Assembly: GCA_964606505.1 (NCBI GenBank)
Contig: CAZSGM010000001.1
Location: 113,588-177,587, forward strand
Reading direction: 5' to 3'
Source: an uncultured Lachnospiraceae bacterium
GTDB lineage: Bacteria; Bacillota; Clostridia; Christensenellales; UBA1242
DNA length: 64,000 nucleotides
The notes under the pieces were generated by a model that saw only the letters and a list, made by a program, of their open reading frames with translations, ran no database searches and was not told the DNA's origin. The translations under genes were made by a program, and so were the position numbers. This document shows, piece by piece, positions 16,765 through 56,941 of the stretch; positions within the stretch are counted from its first letter, which is position 1; each line of letters opens with the position of its first letter.

Positions 16765-19427
16765 ATGAATAAAAGCGAATTTGAAAATGTGAAAAAGTTG
16801 GGGGGGGGGGGTATTTAGTTGCTAAAAATAGCGGCTTAACCACTCGAAATGATGCGGACACCTGCAAAAATATGCAGGATAACCCCCATTTTTTGCAATA
16901 TTTGCAAAATTGTGAAAATGTGCAACATAATGGTAATTTCACAAAAAAAATCACTCAAAACAATGCAAAATTGCAATGCAAAAATTCATTTAAAAATAAT
17001 GACGAATTAAATTTAACAAATAATGATTTATCTATTAATTCGCACAATCAAAATAATCGCAAAAATAATAGTGTATCAAATGCGACTAGCAAGTGCGCAC
17101 AAAAAGATACATTAAAGAATATTGCGAGTGAAAATTTTACTCCTTTTAAAAATAGTTATAATAATGTAAGTTATAAAAATAATGCAACTCAAAATGCTAG
17201 TATGAGTTGCAAAAATAGTGTAAGTTGTAAACGCGATGTAAGTTGCCAAAGTAAGGCGGGTTACAAAAGCACAGCGTATTATGAAAACGGGATAAACAAC
17301 AAAATTTGCACGACAAAGTGTTCCGCTACGACAAAAATTTGTTTGTGGATTTTCTTGTTTGTTGCGTGCCTCGCGGTTACGATCGGGTTTGGCTACTTTT
17401 GCGGAAGCAACGGCAGCCTCAAGGTTGCACCTGAAATTGAAACCGCCTCAGCAGCAGGCGAAACTTGGAGCGGTAGCGGCACGCAAGCCGACCCGTACCA
17501 AATTTCAAATTATACCGACTTGCTCGCGCTTTCTACCGCTTGCAACACGCCAACAAGTGGAACAACTTACAATCACTATCAAAGTGTGTATTTTAAATTG
17601 ACAGCAGATATAACAATAGCAGCGGCGGACTTAAATAATACAACGACCTCCACAACTTGGACGCCAATCGCCTGCGATCCAACAGGGGTTAATTATGCTA
17701 ACTGCTATTTTTCGGGTATTTTTGACGGAGATGGGCACACTATAACTTACGCGGGGGATGTAACTGTAAATGTCGGCGTTTCTACTGCTTCAAGTCCAAA
17801 TTTATATTATGGCTTGCTATTTGGATATGTTTTGGGCGACGCTAGTGATACTGCTAGTGCGACGTATGGAATTGTTAAAAATACCAACATAACATTCGGA
17901 GCCGCTAGTAGTTCAGCCACCGCTTTTACTTTGAAACTTGTTGCGGTTAGTTCCAATAACTGCATTGGAACGTCTCAAGTTGGTGGACTTGTTGGCCGTT
18001 TAAGCAATGGCAAGGTTTCACAATGCAAATTTAATGGTAAGCCATTTAATTTTACAGTTGAATGTGATAGTATAAGTGGTTGGGATCGTGGTTTTGCAGG
18101 AATTGTCGGATATACGTCAAGTTCCAGAGTGGACAATTGCGAATTTAATACCGATTATTCATTTTCGGATTTGCCTACTGGGATTTTAGAGGGCGGTGCA
18201 GCCGTAGTTGGGTATGCACCTAATAGCACAATCATCGAAAAATGCAAGGTAAATGGGAATGTAACATTTTTAAAAGAGGCTTCGGGAACTAATCGCGCAG
18301 AACTTGGTGGAATATTGGGGAGTGGCTCAGCAAATGTGAGCAATTGTGGTTTTTATGGTAACTTTGTTTGCAAGTGGCGGTCGGGTTCAGGGACTAAAGC
18401 GGGTGCAATTGCTGGGGGTGCTACTAATATTGAAAATTGTGTTATAGAGGGGGAAGTAACTTTAGGGGAAAAAGGCGGGGCTGCATCCTGCTCGGGGATA
18501 ATAGTCGGTAGCGCTACAAGTGTTTCAAATTGCTATGCTAATGTGAGCAATTCATCACTTTGTATGACTGGCACGGATGGTGAGTTTGGGATAATCGCAG
18601 GTAGTGTAACGAATATGAGCAATTGCGCAATAAATGTGCAATTAATTGATTTAATAAGGGCGACTAGCCTAGTATCCTATGCTAGTGGCACAGTAAACAA
18701 TTGTATAGCAATTGTGGATGTTGGGTCATATAGCGGGACTCTATATCCATTTTCTAATGGGTTTTATAATTGTGTAATAATAGCATCAGGGACAAATGTT
18801 ACTGCAGCGTACCCAATTAAATCCAATACCACCAACACCTCAGATACGACTAACGGGCTTTATTCACTAACATCAACTGACGCAAACCTTAGCGAGTTGA
18901 AAAGTAAAACCACCTATACATCGGGGTCAACTCATTTCACTTGGAACACTGACGGCGATGTTGCGGGGAGCACAACAGGTGGGCACGCGTGGGATTTTGC
19001 AAACACTTGGATGATTAACAGCACTATGAATGATGGGTATCCAACGCTGCAAATGCTGATAACATCCTACAACATCACGCTCAACGTAACCACTAATCTT
19101 AGCGGCTCCACCTTGGGAACAACCACAGGCTCAAGCGGTTCATCCTCAGCAACCGCCACGGCAAACCCTGCCGACCAGTTCATAATTTACCGCCTTGACG
19201 AGTCTGGAAACCTCGTCAACCAGTTTGTCGTCCGAAACGGCAGCACGGTTACCTTTGAAGTCGACAAAAACAAATCCTTTACTATAATGATTAACTACAA
19301 ACTTTATATGGTAACAACAATCGGAACCGAGTCGACAAACAAGAAAACATACACTCCAACTGCCGACACGACAATCGACATCGACATAACCGCCCCTTCA
19401 GGCGTCAACAACTGGATTGTTATTTAA
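16765..19427 (+). CDS. GLUG-repeat surface protein paralog A, interrupted at the 5' poly-G tract (phase OFF as assembled)
   Basis: AAGGAG RBS, then ATG 16765. The leader MNKSEFENVKKLGGGG hits TAG after the 12-G tract. The main frame (track ORF 16872-19427) is open back into the tract and fuses if the tract is 13 or 10 G. Architecture: Asn-rich N-region, TM helix ICLWIFLFVACLAVTIGFGYF, GLUG repeats, conserved C-terminal domain. Confidence 0.8.
16800..16811 (+). repeat. Homopolymeric G12 tract (candidate slipped-strand phase-variation site)
   Basis: Counted directly: the final g of block 16791-16800 plus 11 g. Confidence 0.9.
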
Positions 19428-29271: not shown

Positions 29272-31754
29272 ATGGTAAATAATGACGAAATGAAAAACGC
29301 GAAAAAACTGGGGGGGGGGGGGGGTATTTAGTTGCTAAAAATAGCAGCTATACTGCCCAAAATGATAAGGATACCTGCAAAAATATGCAGGATAACTCCC
29401 AATTTTTGCAACAATCGCAAAATTGCGAAAATGCGCAAAAAAATAATAATTTAGAAAAAATATCAATCCAAAACAATGAAAAACTGCATTGCAAAAAATT
29501 AATTATTAACACAGAAAGTAATGATGAATTTAATTTAATAAATAATGATTTATTAATTAATTCAAGCAAGCAAAATGATTGCGAAAAAAATATTAATGTA
29601 TCAAATATTTGTAGTAGTAAATGTGCGCAAAGTGATACATGTAAAAATAATACAAGAGAAAATTTTTCTGCTTTAAAAAATAGTTATAACAATGTGAGTC
29701 ATAAAAATAATATAAGTTACAAAAATAATATAAAGGCATATTCCGCTACGACAAAAGTTTGTTTGTGGCTTTTCTTGCTTGTAGCATGCCTCGCGGTTAC
29801 AATTGGTTTTGGTTGCGTTGGCGGAAGTAGTGGGAACGGCAGTTTAAAAGTTGCGCCCGAAATTGAGACTGCCACTGCGGCAGGTTCAAGTTGGAGCGGC
29901 AGCGGAACATCGGGTTCTCCCTATTTGATAAGCAACGAGGCGGAGTTGACCGCGCTGGCTACTGCGTGCAACTCAGGCACAGCGTATTCGGGAACATACT
30001 TTAAACTAACTCAAGATATTTCAATAACATCTACAAACTGGGCGCCAATCGGATTTGACGAAAGTTCGGCGGGTACGCCTACAAATGTTTTTTCGGGGAT
30101 TTTTGACGGCGCGGAACACACAATTACAATAAGCAACACTTTCAGTAAGGCTTTTGATTTGACGGTTGCGGGCGGCTATGCGTATTGTGGTGCAGTATTT
30201 GGATTTGTTCAAAATGGACGAGTGTTAAATCTTAATGTGAAGTTTAATCTTGGCGCAAATTCAATGTTTGATCATTCATCAGCAACAACAACTAAGATGT
30301 ATTATTATATGTATGGGGGGATTGTTGGGGGGTGCCAGTCAGCAGATAGTGAAAATCCCATTATTCAAAATTGTAGTGTTTTAAGTGAAAATAATTCCGA
30401 AATCAAAGTAAATTTTGGTTTTAACAGATACTGTTCTTTTGGTGGGATAGTAGGCAGAGTCATTGGGAATGGAATAATAGATAATTGCTCATTAAACGCT
30501 AGTTTATCTTCTATGGGACACTCTTTTAAGGAGGGGGGGATAGTTGCATACTCAGAAGGTAAGGTTACCAATTGCAGTGTCAATTCAGATATAATTTGTG
30601 GGGGAACCGTAACCTCAGGGGCTTATGTGACTGACCAAAAACGTGGGGGTATTGCAGGGGTGGCAGAAACAATCGAAAATTGCGCATTTAATGGTGGAAG
30701 TTTTACTTGTGATGCTGGAGAAATATATGGAGTTGGAGTTATAGCAGGTGAAGCGACTACTATTAAAAATTGCAAGGTTCTAAAGGGGGCGGATAGCACA
30801 AAGAAAATAAAGATTGAGACTGGGTCAGGGACAAAAAATGGTTTTCCTGCGGGAGTTATAGCGGGGGCTTGTAAATATATTGAGAATTGTTATACTAACG
30901 CAATTATTGATTACGTCAAAACGTGGGGAGATAGCCGCGCATATGCAGGAGTAATTGCAGGGCAAGCAACAACTGTGAAGAACTGCAAAGCTGACGTCTC
31001 TATAGGTAGTTATAGTTCTAATGACATTTGTTACTTTGGGCACATTGTGGGGGCTGTAACCACATCGACATTAAACGGTTCAACCGTAAATCCGAGTATA
31101 ACAAACTGCTTCATACAAGTATCTACAACGGCTAGTCAGCCGACAAATAACGCGCAGGTTTGCTCAAATGTGAGTAGTGGAACCCTCACTACCTACAACT
31201 GCGTATTTATAGGGGTTACGGGGCTAAAATTCACAAGCAGTATTGCGGCAACTGCGGGCGACAGTTACGGGTTATACGCCTCAAGTTCAGATGTTGCTGC
31301 GCTAAAGAAAACATCCACCTACGCGGGAGCGGGCGCAAATGGTTACACTTGGAACTCCGCCGCGCCGTGGGACTTCGAGAGTGCGTGGTGTATTGAAACT
31401 GAGAACGAAACCTATCCAACACTGCAATTTATGAGCGCGCCGTGCACAGTTACAATAAATGTTACAACAAGCGCGGGTGCGGGCGGTGTTGTCGGAACGG
31501 ATAAGTATATCCTCTACAAACTAAATAGCGCGGGCACGGTCGTCAACCAGTTTGTCGTTAGCCACAACAGCGTAGTAACCTTTTTGGCAAAACGCGGCGA
31601 GAAAATAACGCTGCTAACAACTTACAGGTCGTACCTTTATTGGACGGTAGACGGCACGCAGGTTGATAAGTACCAGTTCACGCCGTCAGGCGACACTACA
31701 ATCGCCATACACATAGCCGCGCCTGCCGTCATCAACAATTCAATCGTGATTTAG
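29272..31754 (+). CDS. GLUG-repeat surface protein paralog B, interrupted at the 5' poly-G tract (phase OFF as assembled)
   Basis: The ATG 29272 leader MVNNDEMKNAKKLGGGG hits TAG after the 15-G tract. The main frame (track ORF 29385-31754) fuses with 16 or 13 G. Same architecture as paralog A. Confidence 0.8.
29310..29324 (+). repeat. Homopolymeric G15 tract
   Basis: Counted directly (1+10+4). Confidence 0.9.
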
Positions 31755-32182: not shown

Positions 32183-32282
32183 CACAAAGAAAGTTGTTGC
32201 GGGCTAAGGAAATTGTTGGGGCTTGAGAAATTATTAGGGGTCAAAGAAGTTTGTTAGTGGCACAAAGGAAGGGAATGTTATG
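32183..32282 (+). repeat. Five tandem ~19-20-bp degenerate units (AAGGAAATTGTTGGGGC-like) running into the start codon of the mTERF-like gene
   Basis: Units start at ~32183, 32204, 32223, 32242 and 32262, with an extra copy at 32126. Each contains an SD-like AAGGAA/AAAGAA/GAGAAA word. Confidence 0.6.
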
Positions 32283-33569
32283 ACAATAGAAGAAATTTTA
32301 ATGAGCAGATATGGGTGGAAGCAAGAAGATATTGAGGCTAAGCGCGAGGTACTTGCGCACATTTCACATCTAACTGACGATGATAAAGTTTACGCAAAGG
32401 GGAATTTTTACGTAAAAACATTTTTTATGACTTATGCCGACCTTAGGAAGGTGATAAAGGCATTTCCGCAAATGCTGGGGCTGTCGGAAGATTATGTTAT
32501 TAACAAGATAGATTACTATGTATCTATGTTTGGGAACGCCGAAAGTGTTCGGAAAGCGTTTATTAAATTTCCGCAAATTTTAAGCATTTCAAACGAAACA
32601 ATTAACGCGAAAATAGAGAAATACAAGAAGAGATTGCACTGCGAAAGAGCGCACGTTGGGGCTATGTGGGCTGAGTATCCGTCAATTCTTCATTATTCAG
32701 ATAAATATATTGACGGAAAAATTGACTACTTAATAAAAACCTTTGAGGTCGAAGAGTACGAACTTGCTTGTATACTTAAACGTTCGCCACAGATTTTGGG
32801 GTTATCCAGCGAAACCATTACTGCAAAGCGCGACTTTTATTGCGATGAACTTGGGTTTAGCCGCAAAGCCGTCGTTAAGCTTGTTAGGGATTTTCCGACA
32901 ATTTTGGGGCTTTCCAACGAAACGGTTTTGTATAGGTTCAACTTTTTCAAGGCGCAGTATGGGTTGGACGATAAGCATGTCGCGAAGATGTTTACAATGA
33001 TACCGCAGATTGTTGCTCTGCCCGACGAAACCATAATGAACAAGCAACATTTGTTTAGCGATGTGCTCGGCGTAACTAAGGGGGAGTTTGCCTCAATTAT
33101 TAGCAGACACCCGCAGGCGCTCACAATATCGGCGACCGCGCTGAAGTACAAGGCGGACCAACTTGCTTCACTTGGTATTGCGCGAAAGGAACTGCTTAAT
33201 GACCCGATGATTTTGAGTTCGCCTGCCAATATGCTTAAAGTTAGGTACATTATTTTGAGGCAGGTTGCAACGCGCGAAGAGATTTTAAAGTCCAAGGGTT
33301 GGTATATGTTCAACCAAAGCAAGTTGTACTCTAGGTATGCGTATATAAAGGATGTATTAAAAAAAGAGCCTACCTTGTCTGACTTGTTGCGTAGCCAACA
33401 GCGCTTTGAAATGAAGTTTGGATGGATTGGGATTGATGATGACTGGACTGAACCTAAATTTACAATGGCAATAGTTGACGAATTGGCGCAAAAGGTGGCA
33501 AAAGAAGAAAAAATCGAACTTACGCGCAAAGACCGTGAGGTATTAGGCACTTGCATAGAGAAGGAGTAA
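32280..33569 (+). CDS. mTERF-repeat protein (helical ~32-aa repeats)
   Basis: At least eight repeats of the pattern FPQ[IM]L[GS]LSxExIxxKxxxxxxxxGxxxxxVxKxxxxxP (e.g. FPQMLGLSEDYV, FPQILSISNETI, SPQILGLSSETI, FPTILGLSNETV, IPQIVALPDETI, HPQALTISATAL). Confidence 0.75.
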   Translation: MTIEEILMSRYGWKQEDIEAKREVLAHISHLTDDDKVYAKGNFYVKTFFMTYADLRKVIKAFPQMLGLSEDYVINKIDYYVSMFGNAESVRKAFIKFPQILSISNETINAKIEKYKKRLHCERAHVGAMWAEYPSILHYSDKYIDGKIDYLIKTFEVEEYELACILKRSPQILGLSSETITAKRDFYCDELGFSRKAVVKLVRDFPTILGLSNETVLYRFNFFKAQYGLDDKHVAKMFTMIPQIVALPDETIMNKQHLFSDVLGVTKGEFASIISRHPQALTISATALKYKADQLASLGIARKELLNDPMILSSPANMLKVRYIILRQVATREEILKSKGWYMFNQSKLYSRYAYIKDVLKKEPTLSDLLRSQQRFEMKFGWIGIDDDWTEPKFTMAIVDELAQKVAKEEKIELTRKDREVLGTCIEKE

Positions 33570-33872: not shown

Positions 33873-33896
33873 TGGGGTTTGCTTTTTGTTTTTTTG
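33853..33896 (+). terminator. Intrinsic terminator overlapping the stop codon of 33573-33872
   Basis: GCAAACCCCAC / GTGGGGTTTGC 11-bp stem followed by a T-rich run. A G7 run follows at 33897-33903. Confidence 0.7.
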
Positions 33897-34130
33897 GGGG
33901 GGGCAAATTTGTGAGCGTGCGGATGTTGTGGCGAGGAAGGCAGGAAATTTTGGGGAAAGACTTGTAAATTTTGTCTTAGTGTGGTATAATTATTTTTAGA
34001 TACTTGCAAAATAATATATTATATAGGTTTTACAATGTGTGAAACTTTACAACAGATGGAGAGTGAGAGTTGTTATCATATAATGGTTAGGTTATTTCGC
34101 AAATTTTAACATAATGGGAATGATGAGGGA

Positions 34131-36145: not shown

Positions 36146-36221
36146 AAAGAAATTAAGGCAAAAATGAGGAATAGCCAAAACAACGGAAACGGAATGGGGG
36201 TTGCCCGCACGAAAGGAGAGG

Positions 36222-36980
36222 ATGATGAAACTTAGTTATAGAGAAGAAATGTTGACATACTACGACGAAGACTATGATGAAGATACTGGGGGCAGTACAT
36301 CTGACTTTGGGCAGGAAGTTGCAGATGGGGCAAGTAGTGCTGCGTCAAGTGTGGGGAATGCCTTAAAAAATCACGCTGCAGGAAGCGGAAAGGCTGAGGC
36401 TGAAAAAAGTAAAAATAGCGATAAGAAGGGAGATAAAGCCAAAGCAGGTGGCGCCGATAAAAAGGGCGCGGCAGGCAAAGATGACAAGAATGGCAAAAAT
36501 AACGCTGCTGCGGCTGGGAAACTTGGTAAGGGCAAAGGCGCAAACGCAAAAAATGAAGTTCAAAAGAGTAAAAACGCTGCTAAAGGTGGAAAAGGTAAAG
36601 TTGGAGCTGCTGCAGGTGGAAAGGCAGGGGCGGCTTCTGCTGCGGGCAAATTGGGAAGTGGCGCAAAGGGCGCAGATGGTAAGGACGTTGACCAAGGCGG
36701 CAAGTACGATATAAAAAAGGCATACCTTAACAAGTTCAAGTTTAAGTTGCAAAAGAACTCGGAAGAGGAAGCAAAGGCGGAGGCAGAGGCAAACCGTTGC
36801 GACCCGTGCAATGAACTAAAGGCGGGTAACGGGCTTGACTTTGGTTGTCTCGACTGGGGCAAGTGCGCGTTCGCGAAGCCGTGTTGTAAAAAGGCACCGT
36901 ATCCGTGCGGGTGTTTTGCGTATATGTGTTTCGGCATAACCTTTGTGGGTGGGCTGATTAGTTCAATGTTCCTATTTTAA
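36222..36980 (+). CDS. Lys/Gly/Ala-rich low-complexity protein with a Cys-rich, tail-anchored C-terminus
   Basis: AAAGGAGAGG RBS. ~150 aa of KGA-rich sequence, then CDPCNELK...CLDWGKCAFAKPCCKKAPYPCGCFAYMCFGITFVGGLISSMFLF. Confidence 0.6.
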   Translation: MMKLSYREEMLTYYDEDYDEDTGGSTSDFGQEVADGASSAASSVGNALKNHAAGSGKAEAEKSKNSDKKGDKAKAGGADKKGAAGKDDKNGKNNAAAAGKLGKGKGANAKNEVQKSKNAAKGGKGKVGAAAGGKAGAASAAGKLGSGAKGADGKDVDQGGKYDIKKAYLNKFKFKLQKNSEEEAKAEAEANRCDPCNELKAGNGLDFGCLDWGKCAFAKPCCKKAPYPCGCFAYMCFGITFVGGLISSMFLF

Positions 36981-37281
36981 AATGTAATTTTAAATTATTC
37001 ATTCCTATGATTATGCTATGAAAAAGGGGAAAATATATACAATATAAAAACTGAAGATTATTTATTTTTGTTGTTCTAGTGAGGATGGGGCAATTTAATT
37101 AGACTATAACGACTCCGCTACATTTAATGATCCCAAAGTAAAATTTTGATATTTTAATGTAAAGTTATCGTTTCCTTTAAAATAAGAGTAGTTAAACATT
37201 TGAAAATAGGTTAAAAATAATTGACTTATTTAGCTATAAAAGGGTATAATAATAAAAATCGAAAAGTTGGAGGCTAGTCAA

Positions 37282-38396
37282 ATGAAAAAGAGAACAAATG
37301 TTCTAATATCGGGGGGGGGGGGGGCTCAGAAGTTGACCAAAATGACAGCGATTTAAAGCCCCAAAAAACTTGTGAAAAAGCAACTTTATTGAGTGCGCGC
37401 CAGCAACAAAATAATAGCGCATCATCTCAAAATGATTTAGGTACAAAAAGCCAAAATGTCAATAATGATTATCCGCAAAGTGGATTGAGTGAAAAACAAT
37501 GCTTGAATGGAAATGCCACTAGCAATGCATACAAACTTGATAATCCAAATTTTGGCAACAATATAAAACGAAGAAATAAAAAGAATTTAATAGCAATACT
37601 AATTTGTTTTGTATTGCTTTTGTCATTTACATTTGGGGTGTGTTGCACTGCAAGTTTGTTGCATGACTCAAAAACTGCAACAGGAACAATCGAGTTTGAG
37701 TTTGAGGAGTTGGGACCAATGGTTAGGTTTTCTTCTTCGCAAGCCTTTTCTCTTTCCACTAATAACAATGCAAAGAATTGGGACGGAACACTTTCATATT
37801 CCGCAAATAGAACTGCATTCACAGAGTGGGACGGCACGACTACTTTGAATGCCGGCAAGAACGGGAGTAAATACTACTTATATTTGGCTGGTGAAAATAA
37901 CACATACCTTTCAGGGACGAGCCAGGGTTCGACTTCTAATAATTGTGGTTGGAAATTGACTGGGAATGCAAACATTTCGTGTTCGGGGAATATTGAAAGC
38001 CTACTTGATTACCCCACAGTTGCTGATGGGGAGCATCCAATGATGGCAAAATTTTGTTATCAGTATTTATTTTATAATTGTAGTAAATTGGTGAGCGCAC
38101 CAACATTGCCCGCAACAACATTGACAGGTGGTTGCTATTTTTATATGTTCAATGGCTGCACTTCGTTAAGGGTAATCAACAGTGAAGCTAAAAGTGGTCT
38201 AAGTGGATATGAAACGGTATATTTGGATATGAGCAAATGTACAGAGGTATCGGGGAGTTGTAATAATATGTTCGCAATACAGCGAATGCTAGTCAATCTG
38301 GATTTAAAGCCACGCCAGAAAGTACTACAATTTACTACATACATAGTAGTAACAGCATTGTGCCAGCAACAAGTAGTTCTTGACGAAGATAAATAA
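37282..38396 (+). CDS. Membrane-anchored LRR-like (BspA-type) surface protein, interrupted at the 5' poly-G tract (phase OFF as assembled)
   Basis: GGAGG RBS, then ATG 37282. The leader MKKRTNVLISGGGG stops at TAA 37354 with 14 G. The main frame (track ORF 37389, TTG) is open back into the tract and fuses with 15 or 12 G. There is no in-frame ATG before the TM helix. Contains the CYQYLFYNCSKLVSAPTLPATTLTGGCYFYMFNGCTSL repeat pattern. The 3' end is uncertain. Confidence 0.7.
37311..37324 (+). repeat. Homopolymeric G14 tract
   Basis: Counted directly (10+4). Confidence 0.9.
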
Positions 38397-38409
38397 GGTA
38401 GACCTTTTA

Positions 38410-38458
38410 ATATATAATAACTAACAAATATATAATAACTGATTAATATATAATAACT
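38410..38458. repeat. Three 18-bp-spaced copies of ATATATAATAACT
   Basis: Copies at 38410, 38428 and 38446. Confidence 0.8.
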
Positions 38459-38477
38459 GACTGGGCGCGTGGAATTC

Positions 38478-38660
38478 AGTGCGTGAACTTGGCAAATTTG
38501 GCGAGCCGACGCGCTACATTCAGTAGATAAGTGTATGCAGGGTATTAGGTAGGTGCGCCAAATTCAATAGGTGGATGTATGAAATTTGACAAGTAGATGT
38601 ACAAATTTTGCTAAGTGGACGTGCAAATTTGATTGAGTGGGGTGGGTAAACAAATTGTGG
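38478..38660. repeat. Iteron-like array: 5-7 degenerate 22-bp units (AGTGGATGTRCAAATTTGAYA-like) in an exact 22-bp register
   Basis: Units start at 38548, 38570, 38592, 38614 and 38636, with weaker copies at ~38480 and 38521. Confidence 0.6.
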
Positions 38661-38684
38661 GGTGAAAGCGGGGGTGGCTTATGT

Positions 38685-39365
38685 TTAGCGGGCGGGGATT
38701 GTTGCGAGCACGGCGGACGTGATGCAGAGGCAGATTTTCTTTTGGTAATCGTGGGATAAAAGCAGATGTTCTTCGTCGGGGTTAGAGAGAAAACCGCACT
38801 CGACTAAGATTGAGGGTTTATCGACACACTTGAGCATAAACAGGTCGCCTGCTTGTGCTTCGCTTCGCGCGTAGGGGAGTTGTTTCTTGAAAACGGCTTG
38901 CAGTGTTTCGGCGAGTGCTTTGCCTGTGCCTTTTTCGTCGTCGTAAAACACTTGCGCGCCGTGCGAGGAACTTGCGGCGTACTTGTTCATATGTATGCTG
39001 ATGACCGCGTCGGGGGCGGCGTCAACAATGATTTGCCTGCGCCGTTGCATATCTTCGCGCTTGAAACCGTTTTTGTACTCGCTGTACAGCCCGCCTTTGT
39101 CCGAGCGCGTCATAACGACGGTTATTCCGTAATCCTCCATAACGCTCTTGAGCATAACGCAGTACTCAAGGTTGAGGTCGCTTTCAATTGTTCCGCTCGC
39201 GCCAACCGCCCCGACGTCAATCCCGCCGTGCCCCGCGTCCAAAACTACGGTTATCGCGCCAATCGGAACGGCGCTAGACGCTGCGACCTTCACGCCAAGA
39301 AAGGGAACTCCCAAGGCAAAAAACACCACCGCAACAACACTTGCAAACAACACAAACTTTTTCAT
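38685..39365 (-). CDS. N-acetylmuramoyl-L-alanine amidase (Amidase_3, CwlD-like)
   Basis: Signal peptide, LDAGHGGIDVGA, ISIHMN and ILVECGFLSNPDEE motifs. Confidence 0.9.
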   Translation of the reverse strand: MKKFVLFASVVAVVFFALGVPFLGVKVAASSAVPIGAITVVLDAGHGGIDVGAVGASGTIESDLNLEYCVMLKSVMEDYGITVVMTRSDKGGLYSEYKNGFKREDMQRRRQIIVDAAPDAVISIHMNKYAASSSHGAQVFYDDEKGTGKALAETLQAVFKKQLPYARSEAQAGDLFMLKCVDKPSILVECGFLSNPDEEHLLLSHDYQKKICLCITSAVLATIPAR

Positions 39366-39885
39366 CCCTCTCCCTCAAAACTCAACTTTCATATTATCCC
39401 CATTAATGCCGCCGCACGCTTGCGCTCGTGCCGCGCTCGTGCCGCGCTTGTTCTCGCGCTCGTGCCTGCACCCGCAACACTGTCATACGCTCGCGCCTGC
39501 GCCTATTAAAATCACTGTGCCCGCCGTGTGCGTGTCTCTATCAAAACCGCCACAGCCCGTTTTGCAACCGCGCGCATAAAACTCATTAAACCTGTGTGTG
39601 CACATCGCCGCAAGTTTGCTTGTTGCGACTTTTGCGCGCCTAAGTGCCACGTCTGCAACGCGCACGTTCGCGTGCATTTGATAAAAACGCCCGTCCGCTA
39701 ACCGCCCTAAATTGCGCCAATTGCCGCGAGTTGATTTATTGCGAGCTCTAAATGTCTGCCACGCGGCAACAAAAAAAGACAAACAACTACAATTTATTAT
39801 ATTTGAGTTGACTGCCCAATATGAAAGATTTAGTTAGAAAAAATGTTTGACTAAATTTGAGAATTTGGTTAAGTACTTAACTAAA
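39221..39885. repeat. Direct repeat DR1, left copy (665 bp): amidase codons 1-48 plus 520 bp upstream
   Basis: Collinear with 43138-43802 at a constant offset of 3917. Six substitutions, all within the first ~135 bp; the rest is identical. It ends 4 bp after the perfect 14-bp palindrome GTTAAGTACTTAAC (39868-39881). Confidence 0.9.
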
Positions 39886-40134
39886 TATAAAAGTATAAAA
39901 TCTCCTAACAAAATAATTGCTGAAGGTTTAATTCCCCAAAAAACAAAGTTTATTTGCCACCAAATATTGAAATTATTTTTAACTTTTAAGATTAATATAA
40001 AGAAATTTTAAAAAACTTTGCAAATAATGATACATAAGTATTGACTTTTAAAAATTACATGTTAAAATGTAAGAAAAAGGATTGAAAAGAATTTTATCTC
40101 TTTCAGTCTTTTTACATTTAGGTGGAGGTGAAAT

Positions 40135-40554
40135 ATGGAAAAATTGAGAAAAGAAATCCTAGAAAACAATAGTAAAGTTGCGCTTGAAATAAAAAGAATA
40201 AATGACGAAATATTGCAAATCCCAAATTATTTAACAGAAGAAGAAAAAGAGACATATGGGGAAATAATAAAAGATTTAAAAGAGAGCATTAAATACAGAT
40301 TATCTCGCAGTGATGTTGAACTAATTTGGCAATATTGTCAATTGAAAATTATGCGAGATAGGGCATGGAGAGAATATAATAAAAATCCAGATAGATATAT
40401 GCGAATTGTGACTGGAATTTGTAGTGACGGGAAAACTCCCAAAGTTATAGTTAAAGAAAATGAACATTACAAAACTTTGATAGATTGCAATAAACAATTA
40501 GAGAAAGTATTAAAAGATTTAAGATTGACTCCAGAGATGAGAAGGGGGAAATAA
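40135..40554 (+). CDS. Phage terminase small subunit, P27-family-like
   Basis: 139 aa. The pattern IPNYLTEEEKETY...DVELIWQYCQ...LRLTPEMRRG matches the P27 TerS layout (from memory). GGAGG RBS. Confidence 0.6.
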   Translation: MEKLRKEILENNSKVALEIKRINDEILQIPNYLTEEEKETYGEIIKDLKESIKYRLSRSDVELIWQYCQLKIMRDRAWREYNKNPDRYMRIVTGICSDGKTPKVIVKENEHYKTLIDCNKQLEKVLKDLRLTPEMRRGK

Positions 40555-40614
40555 TAAAGTCAACGGCTTTTGGTAAATAAAAGGTTATGTTATAATAAAA
40601 ATGGAGGTGTTTAT

Positions 40615-41004
40615 ATGTTTACAGGTTATTTTGGGAAAGTTAAAAGTTATCCCCAAGATAAGGGCTATAGATTTGTGTCTATTGCTAGATTTAATAAGTT
40701 TTGGAATGGAGACGAATATAAAAGGCTTGCTCCACCTGCTGAAATTATTAAAATTGAAGACGAGGAACTTTATACGGATTTATATTATGAAAAAGTTTTA
40801 AATAAACTCAGCCCACAAAAAGTGTATGATGAATTAGGAGATAATGCAGTACTTCTTTGTTATGAAAGATGGTCAGACATAAAAGAAGAGAAAACTTTTT
40901 GTCATAGACGAATTGTTGCAAAATGGTTGGAAGATAATTTAGGAATAAAGGTAGAAGAATTAGAAAATGAGAACAAAAACGATAATGAACAATTGCATTT
41001 TTGA
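40615..41004 (+). CDS. DUF488-like protein
   Basis: 130 aa with an LLCYERW....FCHRRIVAKWL motif typical of DUF488. GGAGG RBS before ATG 40615. Confidence 0.55.
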   Translation: MFTGYFGKVKSYPQDKGYRFVSIARFNKFWNGDEYKRLAPPAEIIKIEDEELYTDLYYEKVLNKLSPQKVYDELGDNAVLLCYERWSDIKEEKTFCHRRIVAKWLEDNLGIKVEELENENKNDNEQLHF

Positions 41005-42181
41005 TGTTGTAAAAACCAATGATTTTGAAAAAGTTTTTGTTTACGCATCAGAAAAATTAGAATTAGAAAAATTAATATATAAATTTACATCGTCCCCGAT
41101 TATTGGTGGCGATGTTGATTTTTGTAATGTTTTGTTTGGGAAATATTTTAGCGATAATAATGATTTAGAATTAGGTAAAGAAATTTATGATGATTTTAAA
41201 TTGGATTCAAATTACATTTTAAGTAACGTTCAAAAACTTGCCTTGTCAATACTATATAAATCATACAGACCACAGCACATAACTGAGCATAATAAAAGAC
41301 TCTTCAAGAATGTGATTAAAAATAAAGACAAACTAATTGACTCAATTTCCAAACAAATAAGTGAAATATCATTACATTTACAAGCCTTTAGAGAATGCAG
41401 CATAGAGGAATTTATAAAAGATATTTCTTATAAGGATTTGCTAGTTATTGATAATCGTAGACTTAATTTTATTGATGATAAATTAATTCGGCAATTGCTT
41501 GATTTTAATATTAAATTTGTCATTTTATCTAAAAAAGATTTATTAACCATAAAACATAATCAAATTTTAAAATCACAAAACTTAAATGCTTACTCCAATA
41601 TTAAAATAAAACCAAAGATAATATCATGTAAGACAAAGACTAATATAGTCCAAAAATTATTTAGTACTATTGAAGATGAAAATATTAAAGATGTAGAAAT
41701 CAAGCAATTAACGTTGGTACAATTTAATGCGTTACGACAAAAATACATGAGTAAACAAATTCATTTTTGGGGAACTCCAAAAATTTGTTGCGGTTTATTT
41801 ACTGACAATAAATTATTTGGAGCTTTTGGATTAACAAATGACTATAGGAATTCACCGCCTAGTGAAATTGAACAACCATGCGTATATTTATTGTCGGATT
41901 TTGTGACGAATTCGAAGATAAGAAAATTGAGCCGATTAGTATTATATTGTTTATTAAGCAAAGAAGTGAAATTATTAGCAGAACGATTATTAAATAAGGA
42001 AATAAAATCAATTTATACTAATGTGTTTACGAAAAATATGTCTTCTATCAAATACAGAGGATTGTTTACATTACAAAGCAGAAATCAAAGGCAAGACGGA
42101 AGTTATAATTTAACATACTTTTCGACAATGGGGGAATGGGATTTAAAGGAGGGATTTGAATTGTGGAAACAGAGATTATAA
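40967..42181 (+). CDS. Hypothetical protein (404 aa), unknown function
   Basis: Long ORF in an AT-rich context. Overlaps neighbours on both sides, suggesting an operon. No motif recognised. Confidence 0.55.
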   Translation: MRTKTIMNNCIFDVVKTNDFEKVFVYASEKLELEKLIYKFTSSPIIGGDVDFCNVLFGKYFSDNNDLELGKEIYDDFKLDSNYILSNVQKLALSILYKSYRPQHITEHNKRLFKNVIKNKDKLIDSISKQISEISLHLQAFRECSIEEFIKDISYKDLLVIDNRRLNFIDDKLIRQLLDFNIKFVILSKKDLLTIKHNQILKSQNLNAYSNIKIKPKIISCKTKTNIVQKLFSTIEDENIKDVEIKQLTLVQFNALRQKYMSKQIHFWGTPKICCGLFTDNKLFGAFGLTNDYRNSPPSEIEQPCVYLLSDFVTNSKIRKLSRLVLYCLLSKEVKLLAERLLNKEIKSIYTNVFTKNMSSIKYRGLFTLQSRNQRQDGSYNLTYFSTMGEWDLKEGFELWKQRL

Positions 42182-43029
42182 AAATAAACCCACGAGATAT
42201 TAAATTATTAAAAGTAAATGCCAGATATATGAAACCTGAAGAATACGAAAAACTTGTTTCAAATATTAAAAAAGATGGACAACTAACATCTGTTCCATTT
42301 TGTTTTTATAATGAAAATCACGAAATTGAGGTTTTGTCTGGTAATCATAGGGTTATGGCATCTATCGATGCCGGACTTAATGAAATTGAAGTTATGCTAT
42401 GCAAGGACAAGTTATCAAAAGAACAAGCATTGGCTATTCAATTAAGTCATAATTCTATTTCTGGTCAAGATGATGAAGAATTGTTAAGAAGATTATACGG
42501 AGAATTAGAAAGTTTAGAATATAAGGAATATTCGGGTTTAACAGATGAATTCATCAATTATTGTAAAGAGATTGAAAAAGATTTTAAAGTACCAACTTTA
42601 TCATATCAAGCACTAAATTTATTATTTCTTCCCGAAGAAATTGAAGAGATAAAACAAGTTCTTGAAAGCATACCCTATTTATTAAGCTCTAACCACATCT
42701 TGTCAAACAAGAAGGATTATGACAACTATTTAGAATCCACAACGACAATATCAAAGTGTTTAAATATTAAAAATCCATCAACAACTTTTCTTGCCATGAT
42801 TAGATTAGCAAAAGAAAATATAGACAAATTGAAAGAACTTGCACTTAACAATGAAGATATTGATTATATTCCACTTTCCATAATTCTAGGACGAAGCGAT
42901 ATAAACAAAGATGATGCGATGATTATTGATAAAGCCTTAAACAAACTGATAAGCAAAGGTGAGATTAAAAAAAATAATAAGGAGAAGGGTTTGGCAATAT
43001 TGGCTAATTTATATCTGGAACATAAATAA
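42163..43029 (+). CDS. ParB N-terminal (ParB/sulfiredoxin nuclease-like) domain protein
   Basis: INPRDIKLLKVNARYM...VLSGNHRVMASIDAG pattern. GTG start after GGAGGG. Confidence 0.7.
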   Translation: METEIIKINPRDIKLLKVNARYMKPEEYEKLVSNIKKDGQLTSVPFCFYNENHEIEVLSGNHRVMASIDAGLNEIEVMLCKDKLSKEQALAIQLSHNSISGQDDEELLRRLYGELESLEYKEYSGLTDEFINYCKEIEKDFKVPTLSYQALNLLFLPEEIEEIKQVLESIPYLLSSNHILSNKKDYDNYLESTTTISKCLNIKNPSTTFLAMIRLAKENIDKLKELALNNEDIDYIPLSIILGRSDINKDDAMIIDKALNKLISKGEIKKNNKEKGLAILANLYLEHK

Positions 43030-43058
43030 GTATTCTATTTTATTGTGAACACACAAAA

Positions 43059-43097
43059 GCCATATATCCGATTTTGAGATATATGGCAATTTTTTTT
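43059..43097 (+). terminator. Intrinsic terminator at the right end of the cassette
   Basis: GCCATATATC / GATATATGGC stem, 9-nt loop, AA then T8. Confidence 0.7.
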
Positions 43098-43137
43098 GAA
43101 AAAATTAAAATAATTGACAGTCTTTACTTGGCATCGC

Positions 43138-43282
43138 TCCCGCCGTGCCCCGCGTCCAAAACTACGGTTATCGCGCCAATCGGAACGCCGCTAGACGCTG
43201 CGACCTTCACGCCTAGAAGGGGAACTCCCAAAGCAAAAAACGCCACCGCAACAACACTTGCAAACAATACAAACTTTTTCAT
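43138..43282 (-). pseudogene. Orphan 5' fragment (48 codons) of a second amidase allele
   Basis: Minus-strand translation is MKKFVLFASVVAVAFFALGVPLLGVKVAASSGVPIGAITVVLDAGHGG, then it diverges. It differs from the intact gene by 3 nonsynonymous and 3 synonymous changes. Confidence 0.8.
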
Positions 43283-43802
43283 CCCTCTCCCTCAAAACTC
43301 AACTTTCATATTATCCCCATTAATGCCGCCGCACGCTTGCGCTCGTGCCGCGCTCGTGCCGCGCTTGTTCTCGCGCTCGTGCCTGCACCCGCAACACTGT
43401 CATACGCTCGCGCCTGCGCCTATTAAAATCACTGTGCCCGCCGTGTGCGTGTCTCTATCAAAACCGCCACAGCCCGTTTTGCAACCGCGCGCATAAAACT
43501 CATTAAACCTGTGTGTGCACATCGCCGCAAGTTTGCTTGTTGCGACTTTTGCGCGCCTAAGTGCCACGTCTGCAACGCGCACGTTCGCGTGCATTTGATA
43601 AAAACGCCCGTCCGCTAACCGCCCTAAATTGCGCCAATTGCCGCGAGTTGATTTATTGCGAGCTCTAAATGTCTGCCACGCGGCAACAAAAAAAGACAAA
43701 CAACTACAATTTATTATATTTGAGTTGACTGCCCAATATGAAAGATTTAGTTAGAAAAAATGTTTGACTAAATTTGAGAATTTGGTTAAGTACTTAACTA
43801 AA
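43138..43802. repeat. Direct repeat DR1, right copy (665 bp)
   Basis: See the left copy. Confidence 0.9.
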
Positions 43803-43914: not shown

Positions 43915-43937
43915 CTATTTTCAAACCTGCTCAAAAT

Positions 43938-44061
43938 GTAGAAAGGGAGTTTCGGGGGGTGATGCAAATAAAAAAAATCTAAGTAATTTACAATCGAACT
44001 ATTTAGATACTAAAAACAAACTAATTTCAAGTGAAATGTTTTTTTGCTAGGCACAAAACTT
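43938..44061. repeat. Direct repeat DR2, copy a (~124 bp)
   Basis: Matches 45974-46096 with a handful of substitutions/indels. Contains a G6 run and the hairpin ATCTAAGTA-14 nt-TA[TC]TTAGAT. Confidence 0.85.
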
Positions 44062-44321
44062 CGCGCGCCAACCGCTCGAAACGTAAAATTATCGCCAACT
44101 GGCAATTGTTTGGAACGCAAAATATCACTAATTGCGAATTGTGTCCGCAGCAAAATGTTGCTGGCGGCGTACCGTGCGCGATGTAATAGACTGACCGCTT
44201 CAAACCCTTCCGCGTTGCGCAGAAATCCATCATTTGACCCTGCAACCTCACGCTTTCGACTTGTACACGACCTTAAAAACGCAAACAACTTGTAGTTTTT
44301 GTTTGCGTTTTTTAAATTGAG

Positions 44322-45540
44322 CTAAATATACCAAACTGGAACAATCAAAGTATCCTTATTAAGGGCTGTTAATGTTTCTTTCATACAAATGATTGCGCCG
44401 TGCCCGACCTCAACTTGCGCGTTTTTTAGAATGTCGAAGTTTTTAACCATAGCAGTATTTGGGTTGGACGTTTTTTTGATTTCAATTGGTTGTAAAACAT
44501 TGTTTGATTCAAGTATAATATCAATTTCGCGTTGTAGTTTATCTCGGTAGTAATACATAAATGGTTCTTTGCCTGTATTTAGATACGACTTGCGAATTTC
44601 AGCGACGATATAGTTTTCAAGTAGCGCGCCGTTTATAGAGCCGTTTTGCAAAATTTCCGCGCTTGAATATCTTGTTAAATAGCAAACCAGCCCTGTATCA
44701 AAAAAGTAGAGTTTGGGAGTTTTAACAACCTTCTTTAAAATATTATTGGAATATGGGTGTAAATAAAAAATAATTTCTGATTTTTCAAGCATTCCCAACC
44801 ATCTTTTGACCGTGTCATCGCTGACTTCAATATCTACAGCGATTGAATGGACATTTAACTCCTGTCCAACCCTGCACGCCACAGCTCGAATAAAGTCAAT
44901 AAATTTTGTGTCGTCTTTAACTGCTATCTCATCTTTAACATCTCGCGACAAATATGTTTGCAGGTAACTAGAGTAATAAATATCTCTGTTTGTGTATTTT
45001 CCACTTGAAAGTGCGGGCAATCCACCGTTCCAAATTCGCGCAAAAATCTCGTCAACTCCCGCGGGTGTGTTGTGTTCTGAACGCAACTGCAGGGTTTCTA
45101 AGCAAACCTCAAATGGCTGCAAGTCGTTTTTTGCAAACAACTCGTGTTGCGACAGTGAAGTCAAATTCAAGATTGCAATGCGTCCTGCCAAACTCTCTTG
45201 CGCAAGCGTCATTAACTTGTAACTTTGCGACCCAGTCAGCCAGTAACTTCCCGCGTCCGCGCCGTTGTCTATCGCAATTTTTATACGAAAACAATTCGGG
45301 CGCATACTGAACCTCGTCAATCAAAACTGGTGGCTTGTGTAACTGCAGGAACATCTCGGGGTCGCTTCTTGCGAGGTTTCGCTCTTGCAAATCGTCAAGC
45401 GTAACCCGTTTTCGTTCTCCGTCGATATGCTCAAGCATTGTACTTTTCCCAACTTGCTTTGGTCCCGTAATCAAAATGCACGCGTACTCTTTTGTTAGGT
45501 TCTTAATGACGTCCTCCATATCTCTTTTGATGTAATCCAT
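44322..45540 (-). pseudogene. AAA+ ATPase (DUF4143 family) split by a frameshift
   Basis: Two overlapping minus-strand ORFs (45109-45540 with the GPKQVGKST Walker A; 44322-45320 with the rest). Reading ...LIDEVQYAPELFSY then KIAIDNGADAGSYWLTGSQ is restored by removing one T from the T5 run at 45278-45282. A TTGACA-17-TAAAAT promoter lies on the minus strand at 45722-45694. Confidence 0.8.
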
Positions 45541-45973
45541 AACTTTTTCTCCTTTTAATTTTTATGTTAATTCATCCAATTAAGTTTTTTTCTTATTTTT
45601 ATATGGTTCATTCACTTTTTGTTTTTTGCCTATTTTCTCCCGAAAACTAGGTTTTTACTGCATTATTTTTGGACGAAAATGCGATACAATCTTATTTTAG
45701 TCCATTTTTAACAAAATGTCAACCTATTTTTGCAATGTTTTTTAGTTGACAATAGGGGAATGGGGCAAAATCGCGTTGGGCGTAATAATGCTAGGTGCAA
45801 CTAGGTTAGTTGCATTGCGGCGAGCGCAGTGGTGTTGAGTTTGATTAGGTTAGACGCATTGCGGCGAGAATAATTAAGTTGGATATAGTTAAATTGAGAA
45901 AATGTCGCAAAAGATTATATGTTAAAGTATAAGCGGCAATTAAGTATAGGGCGTTGGGTGGGCGCGAAAAAAC

Positions 45974-46096
45974 GTAGAAAGGGAGTTTCGGGGGGTGTTG
46001 CAAATAAAAAAAATCTAAGTAATTTACAATCGAACTACTTAGATACTAAAAACAACTAATTTCAAGTGGAATGTTTTGTTGCTAGGCACAAAACTT
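45974..46096. repeat. Direct repeat DR2, copy b
   Basis: See copy a. Confidence 0.85.
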
Positions 46097-46179
46097 GCCG
46101 CATAGTCGTTTTGTCGGCGCAAACATTGTTTTATTGCGTCGTATTCGATTTGCTAAACTACTTAGATATTAAAATATGT

Positions 46180-56134: not shown

Positions 56135-56941
56135 TGTACCTATCGACCTTTTTGTTTTAGTAGTATAATAGCAAATAAAACTTTTTTTGTCAACACAATT
56201 TTAGTTTAGTTGCGAACTTTCGCTAAATAACTCGCTTTTTCGCCGCGAAATGCGTTGTTTTTCGGAAAACTTTGGCATTGAGCGGGGGAACGCTCGGGGC
56301 TTGTGAAAGGAATGCGGGCGAAAATTAGCAATTGACAGCGCGTGTTAATTGGTGGGTGGTTTATATAAAAACCGACTGCGACTCGGGGCAACAACGGGGA
56401 AAGTAAAAGTTAACTCAAAAAAATGAGCGGATAACTTAAAAAGAATAAAGAATACCTAATAAAAATGAAAACAATAAAGTAATATATTAAAATAAGGCAA
56501 ACAATAAAATAATGCCTTAAAATAAAGCAAGACCCATAAAAAAAGTAATACCTTAATATAAAATAAATAAATACATTAATAACAAATACACATTTCAAAA
56601 AGAAAGGAAAGCGGTTACTTCTTGTTTGCTTATCTTTATGCAAGTATTTATTTGAATAATTAAAACATTTAAAATGTCGCAAATGTGTTTGGATTGGTAC
56701 AAAAAATAAAAAAAGAAAAGCAAAGTAAAAGTTCGCTTGATAATCTGTGAAAAACCGCAGAATATGGCAATATATTAAAAAATAAAAAAGTAAAAATCCG
56801 TAGGACGTTGCAAAAATATTAGAAGGATATAAAATTATTTTAAAGGGGGTTAAAATGTTTGATATTTTTTTGCGGGTGTGATATACTAAAAAATGATAAA
56901 AATGCAATTTTTTAAAGAAATTTGTTAAGGAGTTTTTTATT

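Follow-up and report, generated by a model that had tools for sequence, protein, structure and literature searches.

A poly-G tract in the leader of a leucine-rich-repeat gene as a probable phase-variation switch ahead of exchangeable ectodomains in an uncultured bacterium

Introduction

Position 37282 of a 64-kb stretch of DNA from an uncultured bacterium (contig CAZSGM010000001.1; the whole stretch is called the window below) opens a gene, ending at 38396, whose reading frame runs after ten codons into an uninterrupted tract of 14 guanines (G14) and is thereby put out of register with the long frame that follows, which encodes a predicted membrane protein with BspA-type leucine-rich repeats (LRR). 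We interpret the gene, with a probability of about 0.65, as a slipped-strand contingency locus, in which slippage at the G tract would turn the translation of a surface protein with a type II anchor on and off, and which is now OFF and would be ON at G12 or G15. The tract differs in length among near-identical strains, and in some strains the segment that carries it precedes an ectodomain unrelated to the one in the window. We describe below the switch, its variation and the exchange of ectodomains, weigh these against the competing explanations, and compare the locus with known systems of surface variation.

Anatomy and frame logic of the putative switch

All parts of the gene lie on the forward strand. 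A sigma-70-type promoter (TTGACT-18 nt-TATAAT, 37221-37250) that matches the consensus at 11 of 12 positions is located 32 nt upstream of the leader ATG at 37282, and a Shine-Dalgarno motif, GGAGG (37269-37273), read directly from the sequence, precedes this ATG by 8 nt. The promoter is conserved in four of the same-locus assemblies introduced below (L003, L005, L006 and L008), while L004 has TATAAC as its -10 box (37250 T>C). The leader has the sequence MKKRTNVLISGGGG, of which MKKRTNVLIS is the part before the tract; the tract, exactly G14, occupies 37311-37324 and begins within leader codon 10. In the present OFF state the leader open reading frame (37282-37356) has a 24-residue product, MKKRTNVLISGGGGAQKLTKMTAI, reading GGGGAQKLTKMTAI past the tract and ending at the TAA at 37354-37356. 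The main frame opens at 37326 (SEVDQNDSDLKPQK... / SEVDQNDSDLKPQKTCEK...) and stays open for 356 codons, up to the stop at 38394-38396. Leader and main frame fuse when one G is gained (G15) or two are lost (G12), with a predicted product of ~370 residues, and G9 is likewise an ON length; the products predicted for G14 and G13 have 24 and 20 residues, respectively. A sequence-only reading that preceded this analysis had located the GGAGG, the ATG, the tract and the terminating TAA at these same positions and had deduced fusion at 15 or 12 G, and it was right on every coordinate and on the frame logic.

The same reading had noted that no in-frame ATG separates the tract from the transmembrane (TM) helix (37584-37661), and none does, the first Met codon standing at 37719, past the helix. 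Its claim that expression should depend strictly on tract length is borne out as regards ATG codons and goes too far otherwise, in view of three in-frame TTG codons ahead of the helix (37389, 37485 and 37503) and of assemblies that all lack an ON allele. None of the three TTG codons has a good Shine-Dalgarno motif. Gene callers have used the first two (37389 and 37485) as starts, as in the database proteins P0158, P0001 and P0159 (335, 331 and 303 residues); no database protein begins with the leader, and the 90% clusters hold TTG-start calls only. An alternative-frame start reading into the tract at 37311 is also lacking. Three further accounts of the tract were rejected: a regulatory role as promoter spacer, given its position downstream of the ATG; an alternative genetic code, the OFF-frame stop being TAA and long open reading frames reading normally in table 11; and a poly-G read artefact of two-colour sequencing chemistry, unique flanks being present on both sides of the tract in several assemblies.

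Long G tracts in the window

The base composition of the 64-kb window predicts ~0.0016 G runs of at least 12 nt (9e-5 of at least 14), and four are seen; C runs of 8 or more are absent from the window. All four lie on the coding strand, 10-12 codons past an ATG, in genes for surface proteins, and chance is excluded as an explanation of the tract. The other three, also on the forward strand, belong to genes for GLUG-motif proteins that are paralogs of one another. In the first (T1; gene 16765-19427, leader ATG at 16765), a G12 tract at 16800-16811 is OFF and would be ON at G13 or G10, and in the second (T2; gene 29272-31754, leader ATG at 29272), a G15 tract at 29310-29324 is OFF and would be ON at G16 or G13. 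The third (T4; ATG at 56942, ending at 59419) has a G12 tract at 56977-56988 and is ON, with an 825-residue product identical to the database protein P0121. Three of the four tracts in the window are thus OFF and one is ON.

Tract length among near-identical strains

Contigs of the same locus were recovered by exact-protein look-ups, and tract lengths were read from consensus assemblies, with the window (G14, from an NCBI contig of 321 kb) as reference. One assembly (L005, from SRR14160765) has G14 and is 100% identical to the window over 5,437 bp. Another (L002/L003, SRR22923250) has G13, and over 7,250 bp it departs from the window in nothing but the missing G; an intergenic G8 run (33896-33903), which served as control, has the same length in L003 and L005. 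Two assemblies with a different allele, which has a DUF6273 ectodomain, have G11 (L006, ENA ERZ27271042; L008, SRR17244099), and a strain ~98% identical to the window (L001/L004, SRR27361839) has G7. The lengths G14, G13 and G11 each lie one or two slippage steps off an ON length. A hypermutable tract should vary in length in just this way among near-identical strains, and the earlier description of the G run as a contingency tract is in line with the lengths found at this locus (G14, G14, G13, G11 and G7). No relatives were found among the GTDB representatives in contig scans with the protein of the poly-G LRR gene and with the neighbouring mTERF protein, or in JGI metagenomes in contig scans with the leader DNA and the N-terminal module. 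The species is rare, and it or the locus is absent from the GTDB representatives.

Exchange of the ectodomain on a conserved 5' segment

In L006 and L008 the promoter, ribosome-binding site, leader, tract, tail, TM helix and linker are 97% identical to those of the window. This identity ends at 37690, directly past the linker that follows the TM helix, and what comes next is a 290-residue ectodomain that matches DUF6273 and is unrelated to the LRR ectodomain. Homology between the window and the DUF6273 strain does not return until 38692, where a convergent amidase gene ends, so that the strain-specific cassette includes, beyond the gene, a 3' part on the same strand (38397-38692). Both versions are OFF and both keep a long frame open after the tract, of ~420 codons in the DUF6273 allele and 356 in the LRR allele. 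The DUF6273 strain lacks two tandem repeats that lie in the 3' part of the LRR cassette: three copies of an 18-nt unit (TTAATATATAATAACTGA) just past the gene stop (38407-38460), and 2.6 copies of a 22-nt unit (38574-38630).

Neither a copy of an alternative cassette nor inverted repeats were found within the window. The ectodomain replacement that the sequences document is one between strains and not a shuffling within one genome. The segment for the TM helix and linker (37584-37691) has diverged by 17.6% between the window and L004, as against 1.8% for the whole contig, and this points to a distinct patch of recombination within the 5' module. When 1.84 billion representatives were searched exhaustively with HMMER, the N-terminal module turned up in two proteins only, both from this locus; a word-index homolog search with the module alone returned nothing, probably because of a limit of the index.

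The encoded protein

The main frame would begin with a predicted disordered, cytoplasmic region of 86 residues, rich in Asn, Ser, Gln and Lys and ending in NIKRRNKK (37326-37583), to judge by its composition and by an AlphaFold 2 model of P0001, a 91% identical ortholog that was used for the fold and whose residues 1-58 are disordered, with a predicted local distance difference test score (pLDDT) below 50. There follows a single hydrophobic TM helix of the signal-anchor type, NLIAILICFVLLLSFTFGVCCTASLL (37584-37661), corresponding to a long helix at residues 59-89 of the model. The basic residues on its N-terminal side point, by the positive-inside rule, to a topology with the N terminus inside and the C terminus outside. 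A short linker, HDSKTATGTI (37662-37691), presumptively extracellular, leads to the ectodomain, and the 5' recombination breakpoint of the cassette falls at its end (~37690). The ectodomain (37692-38396, ~235 residues) comprises, according to its homologs, the family consensus and the model, a conserved beta-rich N-terminal domain, two BspA-type LRR units and a C-terminal tail; residues 110-260 of the model have a pLDDT above 90. The units, only two in number here, were aligned to the repeat consensus at 38049-38090 and 38127-38168.

Homologs of the ectodomain number 448, with E values as low as 1e-86, and the majority carry PF13306 (BspA-type LRR). Their consensus has the beta-rich domain (YLTFSS...NWDGTLEYS...GNIENLLDY), then 6-10 units of the form LPATTLxxxCYxxMFxGCTSL, and a conserved C-terminal end (...TGGTFTGTPxINTTYY..N.VV). 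The LRR-like nature that the sequence-only reading had assigned to the ectodomain is therefore supported by these homologs, most of them PF13306 proteins, and not by a Pfam hit of its own: at E <= 0.1 Pfam gave no family for the window protein or P0001, neither of which reached the PF13306 gathering score, and NCBIfam gave only a sub-threshold match to the PARCEL repeat. A Foldseek search of the PDB with the ectodomain model, which holds only two repeats, found nothing with E < 0.098. Phage contigs often carry the LRR family: it is present at 64 IMG/VR loci, and a phage tail tip domain was seen in one homolog. In 366 kb of viral loci with homologs, G and C runs all stay below 10, so that the tract is a feature of the host's surface genes and not of the ectodomain family.

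Relation to the GLUG paralogs

At least 13 GLUG paralogs are encoded in the same NCBI assembly (P0121-P0135 among the database proteins). Several are annotated from a leader that ends in ..KK[LV]GGGG (ON), and others only from a downstream Met (OFF). The LRR gene and the three GLUG genes in the window have one layout in common, namely a short leader, a poly-G tract, a low-complexity tail rich in Asn, Gln, Ser and Lys, a single TM helix and an ectodomain; in the GLUG paralogs the tract lies at about codons 11-17, with G on the coding strand as in the LRR gene. The likeness stops at this order of parts. Leader, tail, TM helix and upstream DNA have no detectable homology, and the ectodomains differ as well: the N-terminal 130 residues of the LRR protein match the GLUG N-termini at BLASTP E >= 0.19, whereas the latter match one another at 1e-13 to 3e-72, and no second DNA copy of the 5' region of the LRR gene exists within the window. 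Hence the resemblance is analogous rather than homologous and, as judged by sequence comparison, represents an analogy of layout, not a shared mobile sequence. Of the two claims made earlier on this point, that of a common architecture thus stands for the order of parts and fails for sequence homology, and that of a portable N-terminal module fails for the GLUG genes and reappears in another form, as two unrelated ectodomains (LRR and DUF6273) on one 5' module in different strains.

Some GLUG paralogs may obey a more permissive frame logic. P0123 and P0126, encoded in the same genome outside the window, begin with MLWKKTNWKTRKKWGGGG, which is the usual leader in the +1 frame read from an alternative ATG, so that in paralogs of this type two of the three tract lengths may be productive and give full-length protein. 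At the T4 locus (~56940-57030), the short-read contigs L009-L012 end at or inside the tract, and L009 continues into another paralog; since contigs break or become chimeric at GLUG tracts, the tract lengths of the paralogs are unreadable from short-read assemblies. Look-ups of exact-protein records returned none for T1, T2, T4 or P0121, and a full-text literature search found no paper that combines GLUG with poly-G phase variation.

Proposed mechanism and competing explanations

In the mechanism we favor, the strong promoter and the ribosome-binding site would drive translation from the ATG at 37282 into the tract ten codons on, and slipped-strand mispairing at replication would alter the number of G residues, presumably in a reversible manner. 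At a count that is a multiple of three (G15, G12 or G9) the ribosome would proceed into the 356-codon frame; at other counts, the present G14 included, it would stop after a short peptide (24 residues at G14), leaving the gene OFF. In the ON state a type II protein (N-in, C-out) would be made, with ~100 disordered cytoplasmic residues rich in Asn, Gln, Ser and Lys, one signal-anchor and a small, probably surface-exposed ectodomain composed of the beta-rich domain and two BspA-type LRR units, which might serve as an adhesin or be seen as an antigen. The 5' segment, from promoter and leader through tract and tail to the TM helix, would act as a fixed expression-and-anchor slot, behind which recombination has replaced the post-TM sequence, between strains, with the unrelated DUF6273 ectodomain.

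Several observations weigh against such a functioning switch. No same-locus assembly has an ON length, G14, G13, G11 and G7 all being OFF, a result that is not significant in so small a sample, the chance of four distinct lengths all being OFF under random phase being ~0.2. Stutter in sequencing or in the polymerase chain reaction might account for part of the step from G14 to G13, which was read from consensus assemblies. In the window, a short A run of the coding strand has lost 1 nt (38274-38276, GCAAATACA > GCAATACA), which makes the last 43 residues unrelated to the family, in place of the conserved C terminus (...TTIYYIHSSNSIVPATSSS); the deletion is common to the window, L003 and L005, and its reproduction in three assemblies indicates that it is real, while L004 lacks it and keeps ...TTIYYIHSSNSIVPATSSS. 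L004 has lesions of its own, in that its -10 box is TATAAC, its leader has an A5>A4 frameshift into TAA and a TCG to TTG change, and its tract is down to G7. Furthermore, dN/dS (the ratio of nonsynonymous to synonymous substitution rates) is ~0.6-0.7 between the two LRR alleles, an estimate from few substitutions that denotes weak constraint.

With a lesion in each LRR lineage, the window type and L004, these points keep alive the view that the gene is a decaying relic, once phase-variable and now a pseudogene fixed OFF, whose tract drifts without a selective role. The uniformly OFF assemblies, the frameshifted C terminus of the window strain relative to the family consensus, the damaged -10 box, frameshifted leader and collapsed tract of L004 and the dN/dS value all suit this view, as does the presence of only two LRR units against 6-10 in homologs. 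We nonetheless hold it to be unlikely. Three of four alleles retain an undamaged promoter, ribosome-binding site and leader together with a long tract (G11-G14); the downstream frames of both ectodomain versions are long and free of stop codons; and the DUF6273 ectodomain, intact, was recently exchanged into its place behind the same module. Moreover, long homopolymers are expected, on the established view of contingency loci, to shrink where their mutability is not selected, and the one allele here whose tract has contracted (L004) is also the one in which promoter and leader have been lost.

Less probable still is expression that is leaky or graded at any tract length, through slippage of RNA polymerase, ribosomal frameshifting or starts at the TTG codons at 37389, 37485 and 37503. 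All three TTG codons are in frame ahead of the TM helix, with two of them chosen by gene callers, but none is accompanied by a convincing Shine-Dalgarno motif. Long runs of A or T are known to cause transcriptional slippage, for which runs of G are less well documented. The alternative-frame ATG of the GLUG genes for P0123 and P0126 reads through the tract and affords more than one productive length there, but no alternative-frame start reads into the tract of the LRR gene. The weakest rival, very improbable in our judgment, is a miscount of a tract that is in truth stable and in frame: homopolymers of 11-14 are error-prone on all platforms, and GLUG short-read contigs do break at poly-G tracts or are chimeric across them, but the G14 of the NCBI-derived window recurs in L005, a Logan assembly that is independent of it and 100% identical to it over 5.4 kb, the G11 and G7 alleles are far beyond stutter, the second frameshift (38275) recurs in three assemblies, artefacts cannot account for four tracts that all occupy one position in their genes, and a long G run is present whatever its exact count.

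Beyond the slipped-strand switch itself, we advance as a tentative and rather doubtful extension that the 5' segment (promoter, ribosome-binding site, leader, poly-G tract, disordered tail and TM helix) may be a dedicated stochastic 'display slot', loaded by recombination after the TM helix with unrelated ectodomains (BspA-type LRR, DUF6273), among them ones of a family that phage contigs often carry, and may be one element of a poly-G phasome that spans the genome and counts more than 15 surface genes, the host being uncultured and probably monoderm.

Neighbourhood and host

The genes in the window that point to the type of host encode Amidase_3, MprF-like, SbsC_C and mTERF proteins and proteins with MBG and Listeria-Bacteroides repeats, a content that suggests a monoderm, Bacillota-like organism; Rfam and tRNA scans of the window were empty. 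The mTERF protein (429 residues, 32280-33569; PF02536, E = 3e-45) is encoded between two poly-G-switched genes and belongs to a family that is mainly eukaryotic and organellar. Immediately upstream of the LRR gene, 36201-36980 encodes a low-complexity protein rich in Lys, Ala and Gly, with a Cys-rich hydrophobic C terminus and a central part of variable length (251 residues here versus 345 in L006), homology being lost over 36282-36633. Downstream lies an insertion of ~3.9 kb with a low G+C content of 26-29% (39885-43800), whose genes include a phage DAM-like/GNAT-like one (40967-42181) with small genes next to it. Direct repeats of ~0.66 kb (39221-39520 and 43138-43437), in which the 5' end of the amidase gene is duplicated, flank this insertion; L006 lacks it and has a single copy of the repeat. 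Further on, direct repeats of ~140 nt, 89-97% identical (43933-44066 and 45969-46101), flank a gene on the minus strand for an AAA_14/DUF4143 ATPase (44322-45320).

Comparison with known systems and significance

The locus most likely belongs to a known class, that of simple-sequence contingency loci, and goes beyond the routine of that class in the exchange of ectodomains on a fixed switch-and-anchor segment. A large poly-G phasome in an uncultured bacterium is likewise beyond the routine: at least 14 surface genes in this one genome appear to be gated by poly-G, most of them for GLUG-motif proteins, in addition to the LRR gene. To our knowledge, poly-G contingency loci, a textbook matter in Campylobacter, Helicobacter and Neisseria, have rarely been documented in uncultured, non-pathogenic bacteria, and poly-G phasomes have hardly been described for the group of this uncultured and probably monoderm host. 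Two layers of surface variation would be superimposed here, a fast one of ON/OFF switching and a slower one of domain exchange. There is also a lesson for annotation, in that calls from TTG starts hide leader and switch from the protein databases and short-read contigs break at the GLUG tracts.

The closest parallel in mechanism is provided by the poly-G contingency genes of Campylobacter jejuni, Helicobacter and Neisseria, such as N. gonorrhoeae pilC, in which the G tract lies in the region coding for the signal peptide. They share with the LRR gene a tract of ~8-15 G residues near the 5' end of the coding sequence for a surface protein, translational ON/OFF control by +/-1 slippage, as proposed here, and many such genes per genome in mixed states. 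They differ in belonging to proteobacterial or campylobacterial pathogens, whereas the present host is a rarely sampled, uncultured bacterium with monoderm-type genes; in the LRR gene, moreover, what comes after the tract is a long cytoplasmic tail with a signal-anchor rather than a signal peptide that is cleaved. General background on poly-G contingency genes is available (PMC2823697, PMC5320596, PMC5084427).

The closest parallel in protein type is Candidatus Mycoplasma girerdii, whose BspA-like LRR surface proteins are phase-varied by simple sequence repeats (PMC5476646). As proposed here, repeat-length frameshifts act on BspA-type LRR surface proteins; the majority state there is often OFF, with minority ON variants, and switching was detected from metagenomic data (PMC5476646). 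That family, of at least 28 copies, is switched by dinucleotide repeats such as CA (PMC5476646), whereas at the present locus G residues alone make up the repeat, the LRR gene is single and has two units, and the large switched family of the genome is GLUG, not LRR. In modularity the nearest counterpart is the MBA/UU172 system of Ureaplasma, in which chimeric mollicute surface antigens combine a conserved N-terminal anchor with exchangeable C-terminal parts (PMC3047005). Both systems present a conserved 5' expression-and-anchor region joined to alternative, unrelated exposed domains, and they differ in the route of exchange, which in Ureaplasma is an intragenomic site-specific inversion between cassettes (PMC3047005) and at the poly-G locus described here a replacement between strains.

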